This document shows positions 1-38,228 of a stretch of DNA of 38,228 nt, piece after piece (position 1 is the first letter of the stretch; each line of letters begins with the position of its first letter). The notes under the pieces were generated by a model. That model made no database searches and was not told the DNA's origin. It worked only from the letters and a program-made list of their open reading frames with translations. The position numbers and the translations under genes are program-made. Source of the stretch: a virus; IMG/VR virus record IMGVR_UViG_3300029206_000010, positions 1 to 38,228 of that record; one strand, given 5' to 3'.

Positions 1-64
1 CGTCCAAATCCGATGAAACGTTACATGAAACGGATGAAACGTTACATGAAACGGATGAAACGCC
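1..64. repeat. 64-bp terminal direct repeat identical to 38165..38228 (circular-contig overlap / terminal redundancy)
   Basis: Read directly: first 64 nt (cgtccaaatccgatgaaacg...gaaacgcc) recur exactly as the last 64 nt of the window. Confidence 0.9.
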
Positions 65-671
65 ATATAAGAGAAGAGAAGAGAAGAATAGAGAAGATAA
101 TAATATAAAATACACCCCCCTTACCCCCCAGGGGGAGCAGGGTGTGGGTGTGAGTACACCTGCACAGACTTCGCCCCTGAAGGCAAGAGAGGCACCTGGG
201 CCTGACCCAGAGCCTAAGCCTGAGACCCCAGCCACGGATCCCCCGCAGGCCCCTGATACGACCACGGACCCGGCTACACCCCCGCAGGCAGATACCACTC
301 ACGGCAACCCTGCGTGGAAAGAGTTCTGCTACGTCTTCTCGTTATGGCCTGTACAGCAGGGGAAGGAGAAGGCGTGGAGAGAATACGCCTACCTCAAGGC
401 AAGGCACATCGTCCCTGAGTCCTACGCCCTTGCTGACATCATCGAGCGCTTCAAGGCGGAGGACCGACGATGGAAGCGCGGCTACGTCCCCATGATGAGC
501 AACTGGCTCCACGACAGACGCTGGGACGACGTGCCGGAGAAGGCGCCGGCGAAGAGCTACGCCCCGGACGAGAACGGGTCCACTCCCTACGTGGACGAGC
601 ATGACCAGGATTACACGTCTTCGGGCTTTGGTTCGATTTTTGACTCGTTGAAGGAGAAAGCAAATGCGTAA
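1..671 (+). CDS. C-terminal portion of wrap-around replication initiator ORF (continues from 37795..38164); Pro/Thr/Asp-rich linker plus conserved W-rich C-terminal domain (NPAWKEF..WREYAYLKA..WL.DRRWDD)
   Basis: Frame 0 is open from nt 3 to stop at 669-671 with no in-frame stop upstream of the GTG at 144. Reading SKSDETLHETDETLHETDETP continues the 37795 ORF. Stop overlaps the DnaC-like start. The ORF track lists 144..671. Confidence 0.7.
   Translation, partial: SKSDETLHETDETLHETDETPYKRREEKNREDNNIKYTPLTPQGEQGVGVSTPAQTSPLKAREAPGPDPEPKPETPATDPPQAPDTTTDPATPPQADTTHGNPAWKEFCYVFSLWPVQQGKEKAWREYAYLKARHIVPESYALADIIERFKAEDRRWKRGYVPMMSNWLHDRRWDDVPEKAPAKSYAPDENGSTPYVDEHDQDYTSSGFGSIFDSLKEKANA
10..62 (+). 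repeat. iteron-like tandem repeat: 21-bp unit gatgaaacgttacatgaaacg x2.5 (five ATGAAACG 8-mers, alternating 12/9-bp spacing); putative replication-origin iterons inside initiator ORF
   Basis: Seen in sequence; also present in the duplicate at 38174..38226. Confidence 0.7.
65..113. promoter_or_regulatory. AT-rich, purine-skewed tract (agagaagagaagagaagaatagagaagataataatataaaata) immediately 3' of iterons; candidate DNA-unwinding element of ori
   Basis: Composition: about 75% A+T in a genome of about 58-60% GC; juxtaposed to iterons as in lambda ori. Confidence 0.4.
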
Positions 672-1458
672 AATGGAAGCCCTTTTCCGGGCAAAGGATA
701 TGCGCCCGGCTATATGCCAGAGGCACGGAGACTACATCTCGTACCTCCTCCCCTGCCAGTACAAAGAAATCTGGAGCCGGTGCCCCGAGTGTGAGAAAGA
801 GATTCAGCTCGAGAAGGATCTCCACGAAGAAGCCAACGCCCGCGCCGAGATTGCTGCATGGCGCATTGAGCAGCTCATGGGTCAGGCCTGTATCCCGCCG
901 AGATTCGCGAACCGGAGCTTTGAGAACTTCCGCACAGACGAGGACGAACAAAAAATGGCCCTCCGCGCATGCATGAGCTACGCCGTGACCGGATGGGAAG
1001 ACACGATGAAAACCGGCCGGAGCCTCTGCATCCTCGGACGCCCCGGTACAGGAAAAACGCACCTCGCCGCCGCGATGGTGCGATCCGTCATCAGCCGGGG
1101 TTTCCCCGCCGTGTACGTCAGGGAGGCGGACATCTTCCGCCGCATCAAGGAGACGTACATGTCGCGGACTGTGAGCGAACGGCAGGCCATGGCCGATTTC
1201 GTGAAGCCGGCCCTGCTCGTGATTGACGAGGTGGGGAGGCAGTACGGGACGCCGGCGGAGCGCTTCATGTTTTTTGACGTCATTGACAGACGCTACGAGA
1301 ACATGAAGCCCACGATTCTCATCTCGAACCTGGACAAGACCCATTTCCGCGAGCTGCTTGGTCTCTCTCTCTTCTCGCGCCTCGCAGAGGGCGGAGGGCA
1401 GCTTCTCGTCCTTGCCGGCAAGGATATGAGACTGGAGGCAAGCCATGGCGTCGCTTAA
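664..1458 (+). CDS. DnaC/IstB-like AAA+ helicase loader (replication protein)
   Basis: Walker A GRPGTGKTHLAAA, Walker B LLVIDEVG, N-terminal Cys-rich region; RBS aaggag 8 nt upstream; 264 aa. Confidence 0.9.
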   Translation: MRKMEALFRAKDMRPAICQRHGDYISYLLPCQYKEIWSRCPECEKEIQLEKDLHEEANARAEIAAWRIEQLMGQACIPPRFANRSFENFRTDEDEQKMALRACMSYAVTGWEDTMKTGRSLCILGRPGTGKTHLAAAMVRSVISRGFPAVYVREADIFRRIKETYMSRTVSERQAMADFVKPALLVIDEVGRQYGTPAERFMFFDVIDRRYENMKPTILISNLDKTHFRELLGLSLFSRLAEGGGQLLVLAGKDMRLEASHGVA

Positions 1459-1846
1459 CAACGTCACCCTCATCGGCCTTCTCGGCCGTGACCCCGAGGA
1501 GGTGCACGCCGGACAGAGCAGCTTCGCCCGTCTCTCCGTGGCCACGGACGACGGCTACCGTGACCAGTCCGGCCAGAAGGTGGAGCGCACCACCTGGCAC
1601 AGTGTGACGTGCGGCGGAAAGACGGCGGACTTTGTGCTGAAGTATCTGCACAAGGGAAGTCAGGTCCTCGTGCAGGGGCGGTATCTGTCACGTAAGTACC
1701 AGACCAAGGACGGGCGAGACGCCGTGTCCTGGTACGTGCAGGCCCAGAGAGTACAGTCCCTCGGTGGCCACGGTGGCCACGATGACCAGCAGCAGGGGCA
1801 GGGGCACCAGCAGGGAGGCGGGTACGATGACTCGTGGAAGTATTAA
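1445..1846 (+). CDS. ssb: single-stranded DNA-binding protein
   Basis: MASLNNVTLIGLLGRDPE... OB-fold SSB N-terminus; Gly/Gln-rich tail ending DDSWKY; 133 aa. Confidence 0.9.
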   Translation: MASLNNVTLIGLLGRDPEEVHAGQSSFARLSVATDDGYRDQSGQKVERTTWHSVTCGGKTADFVLKYLHKGSQVLVQGRYLSRKYQTKDGRDAVSWYVQAQRVQSLGGHGGHDDQQQGQGHQQGGGYDDSWKY

Positions 1847-6556: not shown

Positions 6557-6633
6557 GGCGTACAGGTGGGCAAGGATGATTTTTCTTGCCATGGTAGAAG
6601 GCTTTTTTTTCAAAAACTTTTTCCTTGCGCAAG

Positions 6634-6672
6634 TGTCAACTTTTTGACATACACTCTATAAAAAGTTATAAA
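6634..6672 (+). promoter_or_regulatory. sigma70-like promoter (-35 TTGACA, 17-bp spacer, -10 TATAAA) with inverted repeat TGTCAA-N4-TTGACA overlapping the -35; adjacent 8-bp palindrome TTGCGCAA
   Basis: Read directly in the AT-rich intergenic region upstream of the lysis/packaging operon. Confidence 0.55.
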
Positions 6673-6705
6673 AATGTAGAAAGTTGATTGCAGGAATTTA
6701 CAAAA

Positions 6706-7338
6706 ATGTCGATTCAGTATGAAAAGGTGTTCCGCTGGCTGGAGACGGTAGAGGGGACCCTGACGTGTACAGGGTATATCCCGTGCCGGCGTCTGTCCGG
6801 CGGGACAGCGAACTACACGGGCCGCGCGCCCGTGACGGACTACGAGGCTATGGGCGCCTCCGGCGTGACCGTAGGCGTAGGCGTGGACCTGGGACAGCAG
6901 ACGCTCTCCCAGCTGAGGCGCTGGGGCGTCCCGGCTCCGCTCCTCGAAAAGGTATCCATATATATAGGTAAGAGGCAGGGCGCCGCTCTCCGCGTACTGC
7001 GCAACCGCCCGCTCACACTCACCCGTGAGCAGGCCCGTGAGCTCACGGACGCTGAGCATCGCGGGTACATGGATGACGTGGTGGTGCCGTGGTGGGACCG
7101 CGGGCCTCACACTATGGCTTTCGCCGATCTGCCGTGGCAGGTGCAGGCCGTGCTCTTCTCTCTCGTCTATCAGTGCGGCGTGAAGGGCGCTGAGCGCCGT
7201 GCGCCCGTCACACTGGCGGCCCTGCGCCGCGGCGACTGGAAGAAGGCGTCTGCCGCACTCCTCGACCGTGACGGGTGGGGCGGTGAGTACCTGGGACGGC
7301 GCGCCGCTGAAGGCCGCCTTCTGCGGGAGATCCGCTGA
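6706..7338 (+). CDS. lysozyme-like muramidase (T4-lysozyme/pesticin-C-terminal-like fold), putative endolysin
   Basis: Glu..Thr..Asp spacing in WLETVEGTLTCTGY...SGVTVGVGVDLGQQ; start at ATG 6706 (M7 of TTG-initiated track ORF); first gene of lysis cassette. Confidence 0.55.
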   Translation: MSIQYEKVFRWLETVEGTLTCTGYIPCRRLSGGTANYTGRAPVTDYEAMGASGVTVGVGVDLGQQTLSQLRRWGVPAPLLEKVSIYIGKRQGAALRVLRNRPLTLTREQARELTDAEHRGYMDDVVVPWWDRGPHTMAFADLPWQVQAVLFSLVYQCGVKGAERRAPVTLAALRRGDWKKASAALLDRDGWGGEYLGRRAAEGRLLREIR

Positions 7339-8547: not shown

Positions 8548-9821
8548 TCCAACGGGTGGACGCCTTCTTCCCTGAGGCCTTCGAGGAGCTCTTCAAGCCG
8601 CATCGATACAAGGTCTTCTACGGCGGCCGAGGTGGCGGGAAAAGCCGTGCCTTCGCTTCCGCTCTGCTCATAGAGGGACGCCGCCGGCCTATCCGGTGCC
8701 TCTGCGCACGTGAGGTGCAGAACTCGATCCGGGACAGCGTGAAGCGCCTCCTCGACGACGAGATAGAACGCCTCGGGATGGGCGACTTCTATCAGTCTAC
8801 TGACGGGGAGATACGCGGGCTCAATGGCTCGCTCTTTATCTTTTCGGGCTTAAGGACAAGCCCCGAGCGGATCAAATCCTTCGAGGGCCTGACGCACTGC
8901 TGGATCGAGGAGGCAGAGACGGTATCGGAGAAGTCTCTGGACCTGCTTATCCCCACCATGCGCACGGCCGGCTCTGAGATCTGGATCTCCTTCAACCCCA
9001 ACCGGGTGCATGCTCCTGTCTGGCAGCGCTGGATAGTCCATACGCCGCCGCCCGGCTCGTATGTCCGCAAGGTGACGTGGCGCGACAACCCCTGGTTTCC
9101 GGATGTCCTCCGCCAAGAGATGGAGCACTGCCGGAAGACTGACCCGGACAAGTATGACTGCGTATGGGAGGGGAATCCGCTGCTCGTGGCGCAGGGCTCC
9201 TACTATGGCAAGATTCTTCAGGAAGCGGAAAGCGCCGGCCGCATCGGCTCGGTGCCGGTAGACCCGACACTGCTTGTGCATACGGCATGGGACCTCGGCA
9301 TGGCCGACAGTACCGCGATCTGGTTCTTCCAGTGGGTCTCGGACGGGACTTCCCGCGGACAGTACCGATTCATCGACTACTATGAGGCTTCTGGTGAAGG
9401 GCTGGCGCACTACGCGGAAGTCCTGGCAAAGAAAGGCTACCGCTACGGGCAGCACATAGCGCCGCATGACATCGCAGTTCGTGAGCTTGGGACAGGCGTT
9501 ACCCGCCTCGAGACTGCCCGCCGGCTGGGTATCGGCTTCACCGCCGCCCCCCAAATCCCCGTCATGGACGGCATAGAGAGTGTCCGGCAGGTGCTGGCGT
9601 CCTCGTATATCGATAAGGACCGGTGCGCACAGGGGCTTTCTGCGTTGTGGGGCTATCAGAGAGAGTACGACGAGGAGCACCAGTGCTTTCGCACGCAGCC
9701 GCTGCATGACTGGACTTCTCACGGGGCGGACGCCATGAGATACGCGGCCGTCGGTTTTATCCGCACAGACACGGGGGCTATGGAGCCTCTGAGACAGGGG
9801 GGTAGGCTGTCGATATGCTGA
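8532..9821 (+). CDS. terL: terminase large subunit
   Basis: Walker A YGGRGGGKS, WIEEAE Walker B-like, C-terminal RNaseH-like nuclease motifs (HDWTSHGADA); GTG start. Confidence 0.9.
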   Translation: MHRKVIQRVDAFFPEAFEELFKPHRYKVFYGGRGGGKSRAFASALLIEGRRRPIRCLCAREVQNSIRDSVKRLLDDEIERLGMGDFYQSTDGEIRGLNGSLFIFSGLRTSPERIKSFEGLTHCWIEEAETVSEKSLDLLIPTMRTAGSEIWISFNPNRVHAPVWQRWIVHTPPPGSYVRKVTWRDNPWFPDVLRQEMEHCRKTDPDKYDCVWEGNPLLVAQGSYYGKILQEAESAGRIGSVPVDPTLLVHTAWDLGMADSTAIWFFQWVSDGTSRGQYRFIDYYEASGEGLAHYAEVLAKKGYRYGQHIAPHDIAVRELGTGVTRLETARRLGIGFTAAPQIPVMDGIESVRQVLASSYIDKDRCAQGLSALWGYQREYDEEHQCFRTQPLHDWTSHGADAMRYAAVGFIRTDTGAMEPLRQGGRLSIC

Positions 9822-11926
9822 CAGACATACAGGACAAAATCAGGAAGATCATAATCCGGGAAAGCGCCTCCGCTATCGGGGCTCCGGGCGGGCGGCTTTC
9901 CGCTGACCGCGCGAAGCTCAAAAAACGCTATCTCGGCTACGGCTATGGCGTTGACGACGACCGCGAGAAGCGCCGTCTCTCCACCTACGTAGACCGTACC
10001 GTGATGGAGACGGTAGAGTGGGCCATGCCAGGACTGATGCGTGTCTTCGCAGGTGGGGACGAGATTATCCGTTTCGAGCCGCGCACGCCCGCTCAGGAGC
10101 AGGCCGCCGCTGACGCCACACTCTATGTAAATCAGGTGGTTTTTGGGCGCAGCATGTTCCGACTTATCCATGACACGCTCAAGGACGGTCTGTATCAGCG
10201 TGTGGGGTGGTGCCTCGCACACGCTCCGCGGGAAGAGCATCAGACGGTTGACCGCTTTGACGGCCTGTCGCCCGATGAGGCGCAGGCCCTGATTGCCGAC
10301 ACGGAAGCCCGTGGCGGCGTGGCTGAGGTGGAGCAGTACCCTGACCCGTCCGTACCGGGCGGTATGGCATGCGCCGTGACCGTGCGCACAAAGACGGTCA
10401 CGCATGACGTGCGCCTTGACCCCGTACCCTCGGAAAATGTGCTTGTTTCGTCTGAGGCTGAGGACGTGGAGCATGCACGTTTCATTGCACACTGGGAAGT
10501 CAGGACGGCCACGCAGCTAATGCAGGAAGGGTACAGCCGGGCCGTGATTGAAGAACTTCCCGTTTACGGCTCCGATGATGATCCCGAAGAGAAGGTGATC
10601 GGGCAGGAAGTGAATACCTCCTCCAGCACAGAGGACGACACGGAAGCCGCGGAAAGCCGGCGCTATAAAGTATATGAGGCGTGGCTGGACGTTGATCTGA
10701 ACGGCGACGGCATGGCGGAGAAGGCTAAGGTCGTATACGTAGGCGATGGCTCGGACACTAAGATCCTTTCCGTGGAAGAGTGGCCGCTGTACCGTGCGCC
10801 GCTTTTCGCGGCCTGCTCCGTGCCTATGCCGCATCAGGTGGTGGGGCTCTGCCTCGCTGACCTCGTGAGCGATGTGCAGGACCTGCGCACTGACCTTACC
10901 CGCTCCTATCTGGACGCGCTGAGCTTTTCCAACGCCGGTGAACTTGTGGCCGACTACGGCCCAAACCAAACCGGGTGGATAGACATAGACTCTCTTCTCT
11001 CCCGTGGGCCGGGCGCTGTGCACCGTGTGCGTGGCGGCGCCTCCATATCTCCGCTCCCCGTGGCTACGTCCGCGTCTGAGGCTGTGCAGGGCCTCCAGCT
11101 GACGGATCAGCTTGTGGAGCGGCGATCCGGCGTCACGTCCCGCACACAAAGCCTTGACGCTGATACCCTCCAGAACACGGCCACGGGCGCCTCTATCATG
11201 GAAGAGGCCATCAATCAGCGGCTGGAGATGATAGCGCGCGTCTACGCTGAAATGTTCTTTAAGCCTCTTGGCCGGTACGTGCTGAATCTCCTGCACCGTT
11301 ACCACGACAAAGCCGTGCAGGTGCGTCTTAAGGGCCGCTTCATGGACTTTGACCCGCGGAAATGGGACCCGGATATGGATATATCTGTAGCCGTGGGGCT
11401 TGGCACGGGAAGCAGGCAGAAAATGCTTGCCTCGTACCAGCAGATACTCCAGGTGCAGCAGGCCTTTATCGCTCAGCTCGGCGCAAACTCGCCTGTTCAT
11501 CTCAGCAATATCATCTACACCTGCCATAAAATGGTAGAGGCGGCCGGTCTGGAAGCACCGGAGCGGTTCTTCGGCACGGAAGAAGACGCGAAACGGGCTG
11601 AACAGCTTATCCTCCAGCAAAAACAGGCCGGGCAGGGTATGGACCCGCTTACGGCGGCAAAAGTCCAGGTGGAAAAGGTCAAAGCGCAAACCGCGCTCCA
11701 GAAAGCCCAGCTCGACATGCAGATCAAGCAGGCACAAGCACAGAATGACGCTTCCGGCAAGGCTGCAAAAGCACAGACGGACGCCTCCGTGCAGGCGGCG
11801 AAAGTCCAGGCTAACGCGGCCCTGAAAGCGCAGGAAATGAAGCTGGAAAAACAGCTCGACTACGCCCGCCTTATGCAGGGGCAAAGAGGCCCCGGGCTTA
11901 CCGACATTAAGGAGGAGTCTGTATGA
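9815..11926 (+). CDS. portal protein (703 aa) with C-terminal coiled-coil/Gln-Ala-rich extension
   Basis: Position after TerL, size, and KAQ-repeat C-terminus like P22-type portal barrel. Confidence 0.8.
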   Translation: MLTDIQDKIRKIIIRESASAIGAPGGRLSADRAKLKKRYLGYGYGVDDDREKRRLSTYVDRTVMETVEWAMPGLMRVFAGGDEIIRFEPRTPAQEQAAADATLYVNQVVFGRSMFRLIHDTLKDGLYQRVGWCLAHAPREEHQTVDRFDGLSPDEAQALIADTEARGGVAEVEQYPDPSVPGGMACAVTVRTKTVTHDVRLDPVPSENVLVSSEAEDVEHARFIAHWEVRTATQLMQEGYSRAVIEELPVYGSDDDPEEKVIGQEVNTSSSTEDDTEAAESRRYKVYEAWLDVDLNGDGMAEKAKVVYVGDGSDTKILSVEEWPLYRAPLFAACSVPMPHQVVGLCLADLVSDVQDLRTDLTRSYLDALSFSNAGELVADYGPNQTGWIDIDSLLSRGPGAVHRVRGGASISPLPVATSASEAVQGLQLTDQLVERRSGVTSRTQSLDADTLQNTATGASIMEEAINQRLEMIARVYAEMFFKPLGRYVLNLLHRYHDKAVQVRLKGRFMDFDPRKWDPDMDISVAVGLGTGSRQKMLASYQQILQVQQAFIAQLGANSPVHLSNIIYTCHKMVEAAGLEAPERFFGTEEDAKRAEQLILQQKQAGQGMDPLTAAKVQVEKVKAQTALQKAQLDMQIKQAQAQNDASGKAAKAQTDASVQAAKVQANAALKAQEMKLEKQLDYARLMQGQRGPGLTDIKEESV

Positions 11927-36199: not shown

Positions 36200-36396
36200 T
36201 TACTGCCTCCTTATCCCGTCTTCGTGTCCCTCGTTCTTCGCACCTTACTGATAAGGCAGTGTGCGGCTATGCCGACTTACCTTACTTTTCAGGCCGTCCC
36301 TGCCGGACAGACGGGGCCTTTGGTGGGAATCGCCTCTGCTTACTCGGTGCCTCGGGAGGTTCCTTTCTGCGGCTCTTTCTCCCCGCTGGCAAAGAA

Positions 36397-36453
36397 AAAA
36401 TAGGCTATTTCAGCCTATATGTAAAGCAAAAAATAGGCTTTAAAAGCCTATTT
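36397..36453. promoter_or_regulatory. two 23-bp palindromic operator-like sites AAATAGG-N9-CCTATTT (36397..36419; 36431..36453, perfect palindrome aaataggctttaaaagcctattt)
   Basis: Read directly; same half-sites recur at 37121..37143 between divergent regulator genes. Confidence 0.6.
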
Positions 36454-36476
36454 TTGAGAAAATTCTATATTTAGAG

Positions 36477-36512
36477 CAAAAAAAAGCCCCTCCGAAGAGG
36501 GGCAAAAATTTT
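36477..36512 (-). terminator. bidirectional intrinsic terminator (A8 - gcccctc cgaa gaggggc - aaaaattttt); strong for leftward transcript
   Basis: Read directly; about 150 nt past the repressor-like gene stop. Confidence 0.75.
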
Positions 36513-36655
36513 TGGGCTAGGGAGAAAGAGCTACAGTAAACGAAACGACGAGATTATGAAGGCCCTGTCGGAGAAACACACGACGACCGGAGCACACGGA
36601 CGCCTCCGGGCCAACGTGGGAGATTCATACTTATCATTAAGAAGCTATTCATAGA

Positions 36656-37072
36656 CTAATCCTTTTCTTTATTGAATATGATTATTCTACAGTGTTTTTT
36701 TGTGGACATCATAAGTCCGTTTCTAGCTATTTTGTTTTTTGAATCTGATGACAGCGGCGCGTCTTTGCCTTTAGGCGGACGCCCTGGTACTCCCCTTATG
36801 TTTTTGCCGTCACCTACAATATCTAAGGCGACAGCAATCCCGCACACATCAGCAAGAGACACGCCTAGAGCTTTTGCCATTTCGTAGGCATCAGCAAGAG
36901 ATAACGCCTGACGTCCGCCCCTAACCTTGCGCCACCTTCCAATTGGATCTTTAAAGTCAACACTCCAAGCGGCCTTGGCTAAATCAGAAGCGTTTAACCT
37001 CTGCTTTGTCGCCAAGGCAACCAGCGCCTCCACGAAAGCTTTTTGAAAGTCTATTCCATTCATAAATACCAC
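36656..37072 (-). CDS. putative lysogeny repressor-like HTH regulator (no LexA-like peptidase domain)
   Basis: Divergent from Cro-like gene; DPIGRWRKVRGG..LSLADAYEMAKALGVSLADVCGIA HTH-like segment; RBS aaggtgg. Confidence 0.45.
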   Translation of the reverse strand: MVFMNGIDFQKAFVEALVALATKQRLNASDLAKAAWSVDFKDPIGRWRKVRGGRQALSLADAYEMAKALGVSLADVCGIAVALDIVGDGKNIRGVPGRPPKGKDAPLSSDSKNKIARNGLMMSTKKHCRIIIFNKEKD

Positions 37073-37495: not shown

Positions 37496-37792
37496 GTGAA
37501 GCGGTGGTTCAAGCTGGCGGACTCAACCGTCATGAGCATCAAGTGGCAGCGCATGGCCCGCAAGCTGGGGGTGTCTCCGGCCGTCGTGAGTTTTGTCTAC
37601 GTGGCGGTTCTGTCGAGCGCTTCCCAGTGTGATGACGGGGGAAGCATTGAGGGTTTCGACCCGGAAGACGTGGATTTCTTCGGCGGCTTCAAGAAGGGGA
37701 CAACAGCCAAAATTCTGGAAGCCTTTACCCACGACGGCTTGATCTCAAAAAACGGCGGGATCGTCGACTGGGACGAATTCGTGGAGATATAG
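37496..37792 (+). CDS. DUF1376-like N-terminal-domain-only paralog of the replication initiator
   Basis: VKRWFKLADSTVMSIKWQRMARKLGVSPAVVSFVYVAVLSSAS parallels MAYSWFRVYNGTINDTKWPRIARDSKQSVGAVVSVWMALLECAS of the next gene; GTG start with ggaggga RBS. Confidence 0.55.
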   Translation: MKRWFKLADSTVMSIKWQRMARKLGVSPAVVSFVYVAVLSSASQCDDGGSIEGFDPEDVDFFGGFKKGTTAKILEAFTHDGLISKNGGIVDWDEFVEI

Positions 37793-37794
37793 TC

Positions 37795-38228
37795 ATGACG
37801 ATGGCGTATAGCTGGTTCCGTGTCTACAATGGGACGATTAATGATACGAAATGGCCACGCATTGCCCGGGACTCAAAACAGTCTGTCGGGGCCGTTGTGT
37901 CAGTATGGATGGCGCTCCTGGAGTGCGCGTCCATGAGTGATGACCGGGGATCCGTCGACGACTTCAGCCCCGAAGATATAGACGTTCTCTATGGGTACGA
38001 AGACGGGACGACGGATAGCATCTTTCAGGCGATGAAAGCGCGGGGGCTTATCTCCCCCGACAATCGCCTCGAGGCCTGGGGCAAACGCCAATCTCCGGAA
38101 TCCGGGGATGTGGGGAAGCCGAGCACATCTACGGAGCGTGTACGCCGGTACAGGGCCAAGCGGTCGTCCAAATCCGATGAAACGTTACATGAAACGGATG
38201 AAACGTTACATGAAACGGATGAAACGCC
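37795..38228 (+). CDS. N-terminal portion of replication initiator (DUF1376-like domain); ORF has no stop in window and continues through junction into 1..671
   Basis: ATG 3 nt after upstream stop; frame stays open to window end; SKSDETLHETDETLHETDETP matches frame of 1..671. Confidence 0.7.
   Translation, partial: MTMAYSWFRVYNGTINDTKWPRIARDSKQSVGAVVSVWMALLECASMSDDRGSVDDFSPEDIDVLYGYEDGTTDSIFQAMKARGLISPDNRLEAWGKRQSPESGDVGKPSTSTERVRRYRAKRSSKSDETLHETDETLHETDET
38165..38228. repeat. second copy of the 64-bp terminal direct repeat
   Basis: Identical to 1..64. Confidence 0.9.

Follow-up and report, generated by a model that had tools for sequence, protein, structure and literature searches.

A probable lambda/P22-type replication origin within the initiator gene of an uncultured phage, with a GC-rich element at its boundary

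In phage lambda and in Stx phages, the origin of replication, composed of iterons and an AT tract, is located in the middle of gene O, where additional iterons only extend the protein by further residues (PMC7466680, PMC3349717). The lambda ori comprises four 18-bp iterons and a 38-bp AT tract, and lambda with the P22 orf48-18-12 genes in place of its own is not subject to a plasmid-mediated block that acts on replication of the lambda type (rep-lambda) (PMC3349717). In this study, we analysed the viral record IMGVR_UViG_3300029206_000010 of IMG/VR (hereafter the window, that is, the whole stretch of 38,228 nucleotides). We propose that its positions 12-135 (equivalent to 38176-38228 plus 65-135) very probably form a theta-type origin of the lambda/P22 type, located inside the linker-coding part of its own initiator gene. 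An initial annotation of the sequence had put forward a lambda-style origin embedded in the initiator gene, and the comparative tests reported here support this proposal.

First, positions 1-64 of the window are exactly repeated at 38165-38228. This 64-bp terminal overlap indicates that the window is a circularly permuted complete genome of 38,164 bp whose ends fall within the repeat array of the initiator gene, and the array found at 38176-38226 is the same DNA as the array at 12-62. Both this circular junction and a third conserved element (115-135) had been overlooked in the initial annotation. The initiator open reading frame (ORF) wraps round the ends of the window, 37795..38228 being joined to 65..671, and encodes 346 aa. 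Its 5′ part (37795..38228, plus strand), of which the last 64 nt duplicate 1-64, encodes a predicted winged-helix N-domain (aa ~10-100, nt 37822-38094, plus strand) and a basic segment, STERVRRYRAKRSSKS (aa ~100-127, nt 38092-38175, plus strand). Its 3′ part (1..671, plus strand, codon phase from nt 3, unique continuation 65-671) encodes a linker (aa 124-214) and a conserved C-domain (aa ~220-300). In an AlphaFold model using 28 homologs, two folded domains are predicted, at aa ~10-100 (predicted local distance difference test score, pLDDT, 82-93) and aa ~220-300 (pLDDT 71-86), and the intervening linker of about 90 residues is predicted to be disordered (pLDDT 30-38). This linker is the part encoded by the repeat array (aa 128-144), the AT-rich tract (aa 145-161) and the GC element (aa 162-169), in agreement with the earlier placement of the array in the linker-coding middle of the ORF. 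The identical 346-aa protein is found on 17 contigs, and the gene is contig-internal in all nine places shown, which come from different samples and assemblers. Thus, the copy number of the array is real, and a collapse or artefact of assembly of the repeat at the contig ends is ruled out.

The array itself consists of five copies of ATGAAACG (13-20, 25-32, 34-41, 46-53 and 55-62), whose starts at 13, 25, 34, 46 and 55 are spaced by 12, 9, 12 and 9 bp. Tandem Repeats Finder (TRF) describes it as a perfect 21-bp unit, GATGAAACGTTACATGAAACG, present 2.4 times at 12-62; it is the top-scoring tandem repeat of the window, and a second tandem array of comparable score was not found in the genome. 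The five copies, their alternating spacing and the 21-bp period had been correctly read from the start, as had the translation of the iterons into a DETLHET repeat, residues 128-144 being DETLHETDETLHETDET. The whole window contains 13 copies of ATGAAACG as compared with 0.87 expected from dinucleotide-preserving shuffles, ten of the 13 corresponding to the array counted twice. The three lone copies outside the array are at 10478 (minus strand), 14737 (plus) and 21030 (plus); as candidate extra sites they are not convincing, with three observed for 0.87 expected. Alternate copies of the array make a 12/14 near-palindrome, ATGAAACGTTACAT, and single-strand folding of the array gives z-scores of -3.7/-3.5.

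The array is followed at 63-114 by an AT-rich, A/purine-rich tract, a putative DNA-unwinding element. With 52 bp, a GC content of 0.25 and a purine content of 0.79, it corresponds well to the purine-skewed tract of about 50 bp described initially. Only 0.28% of the 52-bp windows of the genome are equally AT-rich, and the genome is GC-rich as a whole, as had been stated (57.1% GC). The tract is internally repetitive, with a 15-bp unit, AGAGAAGAGAAGAAT, present 2.1 times at 75-105 (TRF). In relatives, AT tracts carry AAGATAAGAGAAGAT twice, encoding the peptide KIREDKIRED; such repeated units recall the repeated AT-rich 13-mers of oriC. A scan for promoters around the module gave nothing beyond shuffle expectation.

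A search with the initiator returned 177 homologs, whose linkers contain differing short peptide repeats at one position, each kind of repeat going with its own version of the N-terminal part. At the DNA level, the window has (A)TGAAACG in five copies spaced by 12/9 bp. TGAAACG is present in six to eight copies spaced by 9/9/12 bp in the loci L242, L008, L004 and L239, and in seven copies spaced by 11/10/12 bp in L240. Other loci carry other motifs: TGTAACGC in L001 (seven direct copies and one inverted, spaced by 10/8/10 bp), TGTAGACA in L005 (10 copies, 10/11 bp) and TGTCACGC in L007 and L011 (four to six copies, 21/10/20 bp). Where the spacing is not a multiple of three, a given motif is translated alternately in two frames of a single ORF, giving unrelated peptides such as VTQ/CNA or DET/VKR (D-E-T and V-K-R in L240). 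That the same motif is read in two frames indicates that the unit is conserved at the DNA level, with copies recurring about once per helical turn (about 10.5 bp). In the TGAAACG group, the 7-mer, which is the core of the window's array kept in relatives, is invariant and the preceding codon varies (D/H/N/P/R, e.g. DET/HET/NET/PET). Since the repeats are kept at the same place with different sequences and in two frames, they are conserved as DNA, and the encoded peptide (the DETLHET repeats, the K/E/R/D/N-rich stretch and TPLTPQG) would be a by-product that the disordered linker tolerates.

The geometry is also conserved. Copy numbers in relatives go from two or three (inferred from peptides) up to 10; the comparison of iteron number and phase that had been suggested with the origin proposal gave repeats kept in place, in 3-10 copies, spaced by 10/11 or 11/10/12 bp. 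Whatever the repeat type, the start of the last repeat is 49-60 bp upstream of the GC element. In a set of 70 dereplicated loci, 59% have at least four copies of an 8-mer between -200 and -45, versus 4% of control windows (p = 5e-24), and the AT content rises to 0.75 over the 20 bp that precede the GC element, versus a background of about 0.45. A 34%-identical homolog that lacks the GC element still keeps ATGTCACG three times in its linker. Homologous initiators devoid of linker repeats, which would have spoken against the origin, were not found among the homologs.

The repeats are moreover co-inherited with the DNA-binding half of the protein. Over 115 homologs, the adjusted mutual information (AMI) between N-domain cluster and repeat type is 0.69, and that of either one with the 45 residues following the GC element is 0.04-0.06. 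In aligned representative sequences, the basic segment upstream of the repeats tracks the repeat type exactly. In the window and the homologs P0001-P0120, S-T-x-R-V-R-x-[YF]-R pairs with TGAAACG, ERVRRLRE with TGTAACGC, AERKRRQRA with TGTCACGC, and AYKREWARRKREESR with TGTAGACA. The basic segment may take part in the reading of the sequence or may merely be tightly linked to the repeats. Basic segments that resemble each other pair with motifs that resemble each other, which suggests that a recognition code could be read from them.

We also identified the third element, a GC element located at 115..135 (plus strand), CCCCCC-TTA-CCCCCC-A-GGGGG, which encodes PLTPQG and forms the right-hand boundary of the module as well as a site of mosaic junctions. 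Relatives carry ACCCCCCTTACCCCCCAGGGGGA after the AT tract, down to 29-30% protein identity. An exact scan of IMG/VR with CCCCCCTTACCCCCCARGGGG found at least 119 stretches. Among the matches listed, it is located mid-ORF in 100 distinct loci, where it is read as xPLTPQG (77), PPLPP[KR]G (22) or PPPYPPR (1), and the proteins that contain it group into at least 31 N-terminal and at least 26 C-terminal BLAST clusters. With a relaxed spacer (most commonly ACA, TTA, ATA, TAA or TAC), the generalised pattern C6-N3-C6-A-R-G4 is present at 124 viral loci after dereplication. Each of the three frames is represented (76/39/9), 115 of these loci have an ORF of 150 aa or more on the C-rich strand, the pattern is at a median distance of 165 aa from the start of the ORF and of 125 aa from the end, and the 30 nt upstream have a median AT content of 0.70. 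An A-rich tract always comes before it, and most loci also have repeats of their own upstream. The segment 115-135 of the window corresponds to this definition, being on the coding strand in the middle of the initiator ORF with an A-rich tract directly before it. Carriers' N-domains include Phage_rep_O, DUF1376, HTH_36, DnaD_N and DUF6291 (loci L016-L279); a genuine DUF1376 initiator, L022 (E=2e-30), has the same GC element, and nine of ten carriers without a Pfam match are PHROG replication initiators.

As a control, we scanned for all synonymous encodings of T-P-L(CTN)-T-P-Q-G. Of the 80 matches, 48 are the all-C form and 12 a C4 variant. Both of the two C4 variants inspected are in O-like initiator ORFs, one with clear upstream repeats, and the ten scattered-codon matches inspected are in amidase-, head-protein- or terminase-like ORFs with no AT or repeat context. 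This control indicates that the GC element is under constraint at the DNA level and is a specific feature of initiator genes. The stability of its hairpin is not significant when compared with shuffles (z -1.0/-1.8). On the minus strand, the GC element and the complement of the A-run (136..115 and 114..105) score as an intrinsic-terminator-like site, with a 7-bp stem followed by TGTATTTTAT. In 88 of the 124 loci, the upstream tract is A-rich rather than T-rich, with an A-run adjoining the element; this bias of A over T is also explained by coding for a hydrophilic linker.

No description of the GC element was found in the searchable literature among works on ori, GC-rich sequences, YdaU or oriJ, and a short-query blastn for it in annotated phages returned no match, probably through low-complexity masking. 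Literature matches for the motif and its peptides were limited to its 15-mer CCCCCCTTACCCCCC (115-129), found only in papers on vertebrate mitochondrial control regions; we take this to be a match to conserved sequence block 2 (CSB-2), which adjoins the mitochondrial heavy-strand origin. This match may be a coincidence, yet it deserves attention because C/G runs at the ColE1 ori and at the mitochondrial CSB-2 promote primer RNA-DNA hybrids. The element would most simply act as a fixed boundary to opening and as a de facto recombination joint. More broadly, and tentatively, C6-N3-C6-A-R-G4 could be an undescribed cis component of phage theta origins, maintained as DNA whatever the reading frame, always on the coding strand just behind the unwinding tract, and spread across unrelated initiator families (lambda-O, DUF1376, HTH_36/DnaD-N, DUF6291, YdaU-like and others). 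It could have a mechanistic role, for instance fixing the boundary of strand opening or, by the ColE1/CSB-2 analogy, seeding a persistent RNA-DNA hybrid or 3′ end, and serve in addition as a universal joint for swapping origin-specificity and helicase-recruitment modules. We regard this as a serious possibility, though one that falls somewhat short of an even chance.

Taken together, the linker position, the phased repeats, the AT tract and the covariation of repeat type, all of which were found, support an origin of the lambda/P22 type. If the analogy with lambda O and gene 18 of P22 holds, the N-terminal winged helix and the basic segment (aa ~100-127) would bind the five TGAAACG repeats. 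The 12/9-bp spacing would set successive sites about one helical turn apart, and the initiator could then oligomerise on one face of the DNA. The resulting nucleoprotein complex would destabilise the adjoining 52-bp A-rich tract, of which C6-TTA-C6-A-G5 would mark the fixed right-hand limit. The C-terminal domain would then recruit the co-inherited DnaC-like loader and the host replicative helicase onto the opened DNA, which the phage single-strand DNA-binding protein (SSB) would stabilise.

Several points weigh against this proposal. The repeats of the window are perfect and spaced in multiples of three, and taken alone they could be a product of recent slippage; for this reason, the argument at the DNA level rests on the relatives. 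They are 8-bp direct cores and not evidently 18-19-bp dyad-symmetric iterons as in lambda, and the N-domain is outside the lambda O family. Moreover, TGTAGACA occurs with two different winged-helix domains, repeat type following the basic segment more strictly, and part of the covariation could be explained by plain physical linkage. Finally, GC skew and cumulative skew, computed over the window as origin signals, track gene orientation and are uninformative; they bring no independent support.

The repeats could alternatively be initiator-binding control sites, acting in autorepression, titration, handcuffing or incompatibility, the true origin being elsewhere in the genome. Plasmid iterons have established control functions, plasmid-borne lambda iterons can silence lambda replication (PMC3349717), and other strongly AT-rich segments do exist in the window, e.g. 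6572-6726 and 36386-36746. These segments, however, are devoid of a TGAAACG array, the only copies elsewhere being the three lone ones already mentioned, and a comparable tandem array is absent from the rest of the genome. In all relatives, the repeats adjoin an A-rich tract at a fixed distance, which is the layout of functional lambda and P22 origins. We thus consider it unlikely that the repeats have a control role only.

A second alternative comes from the mosaicism of these loci. The DNA of L241 and that of the window are 92-100% identical between the ATG and the end of the GC element, and 7-45% identical beyond. This locus (P0070, 2505-3032) has the same N-domain, TGAAACG repeats and GC element, but its C-terminal domain is different and a DUF6475 gene takes the place of the DnaC-like loader downstream, indicating that the C-domain was exchanged together with its partner gene. 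Conversely, L240 is 35-50% identical to the window up to the AT tract and 88-100% identical from the GC element through the C-domain, the loader and SSB. From these alignments, relatives appear to have exchanged a specificity half (N-domain and iterons) against a recruitment half (C-domain and loader) at the GC element. The segment might then be mainly a recombination joint, its AT tract and GC element letting recombinases swap initiator halves, and its repeats being slippage products with no replication role. Relatives do cease to be homologous exactly at the AT tract or the GC element, and this in both directions; what lies beyond the GC element is inherited independently of the N-terminal half, and the element is common to all the N- and C-terminal clusters counted above. 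Phage Rad52-like recombinases, in addition, act on homologies of about 30 bp (PMC3945230). Nonetheless, this explanation does not account for type-specific 7-8-mers that are helically phased and read in two frames, for their enrichment or for their linkage to the DNA-binding half. Any conserved patch would gather breakpoints, so that a joint can follow from conservation, and the two roles are not exclusive. A joint without any role in replication is, in our opinion, quite improbable.

Finally, although the five copies of the window are all in one frame and their peptide repeat is perfect, selection of the repeats as protein (a functional DETLHET linker peptide, AT-richness being a by-product of charged residues) can be dismissed as extremely unlikely, because relatives read the same DNA motifs in two frames with spacings that are not multiples of three, the peptides are wholly different from one type to another when the DNA repeats keep their place and geometry, and the linker is predicted to be disordered.

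With respect to the protein, the initiator matches PHROG families annotated as replication initiation proteins (phrog_9474, E=1.7e-13, phrog_3729 and phrog_270), and close relatives are named 'replisome organizer' in one source. Pfam gave nothing at E<=0.1 for the whole protein and nothing at E<=10 for the N-domain alone; NCBIfam, and the PDB searched by sequence with the family profile, gave nothing either. The N-domain is a predicted winged helix, apparently closest in structure to DnaD-NTD, and its nearest profile is of the Rac YdaU type (hhalign 73%, E=3e-5). We rejected its membership of Phage_rep_O (PF04492), for which there is no Pfam match and hhalign gives 0.5% against the RepO-type group, and that of DUF1376 (PF07120), with no Pfam match and 0.1% against genuine DUF1376-bearing initiators. 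Of the two-domain organisation proposed initially, the C-terminal domain holds, with matches to phrog_270/9327, and the DUF1376-like label of the N-terminal domain does not.

Directly downstream, as predicted, is a DnaC/IstB-like helicase loader (664..1458, plus strand; PF01695, IstB_IS21, E=1.2e-21; phrog_50, E=5.7e-64), which overlaps the stop of the initiator by 8 nt; SSB follows (1445..1846, plus strand; PF00436, E=8e-23; phrog_44). Directly upstream of the initiator is a free-standing 98-aa paralogue of the winged-helix domain (37496..37792, plus strand). It is 39% identical to the neighbouring N-domain (E=1e-22) and 66-68% identical to the N-domains of L007/L011; it is called as a gene in independent contigs and absent from 10 related loci. 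The iterons cognate to this paralogue, TGTCACGC, are absent from the window. This orphan may have been left behind when a module was exchanged, or may act as a decoy that binds the origin of a competitor phage.

As part of the best explanation of these data, and in all likelihood, the genome is that of a circular 38.2-kb temperate phage with its theta-type origin at 12-135. A close cultured phage relative was not found by portal comparison, the product of a portal-like ORF (9815-11926) being only ~28-33% identical to podovirus portals (Pseudomonas, Rhizobium and environmental phages). This ORF contains a 33-bp tandem repeat (2.2 copies, 78% matches) at 11731-11804. No tRNA genes were found in the window. 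A Pseudoflavonifractor metagenome-assembled genome is the single, weak genome match for the phage, and the samples that carry it look like gut-metagenome cohorts, judged by sample names only; the metagenomes with this phage include ERZ28661167 and SRR25653597.

The origin, initiator and loader of this phage can in this way be pinned to a 2-kb module. This opens the way to specificity predictions (TGAAACG with the STxRVRxYR basic segment), to ori-test constructs and to replication-based estimates of activity from metagenomes. It also provides a sequence-only rule for origins in uncultured phages, namely type-specific 7-8-mers, an A-rich tract and C6-N3-C6-A-R-G4, all inside the initiator ORF, and a nucleotide-resolution view of where replication modules recombine. 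If the GC element is functional, it would be a rare cis element common to the origins of enterobacterial (Salmonella, Erwinia) phages and of uncultured phages from many kinds of samples, and its function is directly testable in P22 gene 18.

Compared with lambda, the locus shares an origin placed in the linker part of the initiator gene, with the DNA-binding part on its N-terminal side and the loader-recruiting part on its C-terminal side. As in lambda, direct repeats are followed on the C-terminal side by an AT-rich tract of ~40-50 bp, and the next gene is the helicase-loading partner. It differs from lambda, with its four short-spaced 18-bp iterons, by five 8-bp cores at 12/9 bp, by an N-domain that is not PF04492 and by a DnaC/IstB-like partner instead of lambda P. 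A further difference is C6-TTA-C6-A-G5 after the AT tract, an element that, to our knowledge, the lambda sequence does not contain.

Protein searches link the element-bearing initiators to the 'replication protein O' of Erwinia phage Midgardsormr38, to P22 gene 18 and to Rac YdaU. The Midgardsormr38 gene has the same layout as the window, with GTTACCAA repeats, an A-rich tract of ~40 bp and the exact GC element. Gene 18 of Salmonella phage P22 (repP22) has TCGGTAAAA repeats, an A-rich tract of ~40 bp and a variant element, ACCCCCTTACCCCCTAAAGGGGGA (C5-TTA-C5-TAAA-G5). However, in both phages the N-domain belongs to the lambda-O family (L030-type, PF04492 E=2e-35) and is unrelated to that of the window, the repeats are spaced by 20-24 bp, and the partner is a DnaB-type helicase (P22 gene 12) and not a DnaC-like loader.

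E. coli Rac YdaU is the closest profile to the N-domain of the window, through the L027 group (63% identical to YdaU), but the similarity is remote; like this N-domain, YdaU matches no Pfam family. The DnaC-like ydaV comes next, as in the window, and the linker carries GTAACGC-type repeats and an EEEEEE/A-rich stretch, the Rac GC element being degenerate (C5-TAAAT-C5...). In Bacillus phage SPP1, oriL, with its initiator-binding repeats and AT-rich region, is located inside gene 38, which encodes the replisome organizer G38P. Theta replication of SPP1 from oriL has been described (PMC5737612). The likeness to the window, an origin inside the gene of the initiator ('replisome organizer'), is one of layout only; SPP1, unlike the window, uses its own helicase and loader. 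On the basis of these comparisons, the module of the window appears to be a further member of the lambda/P22 type, set apart by the family of its N-domain and by its DnaC-like partner.

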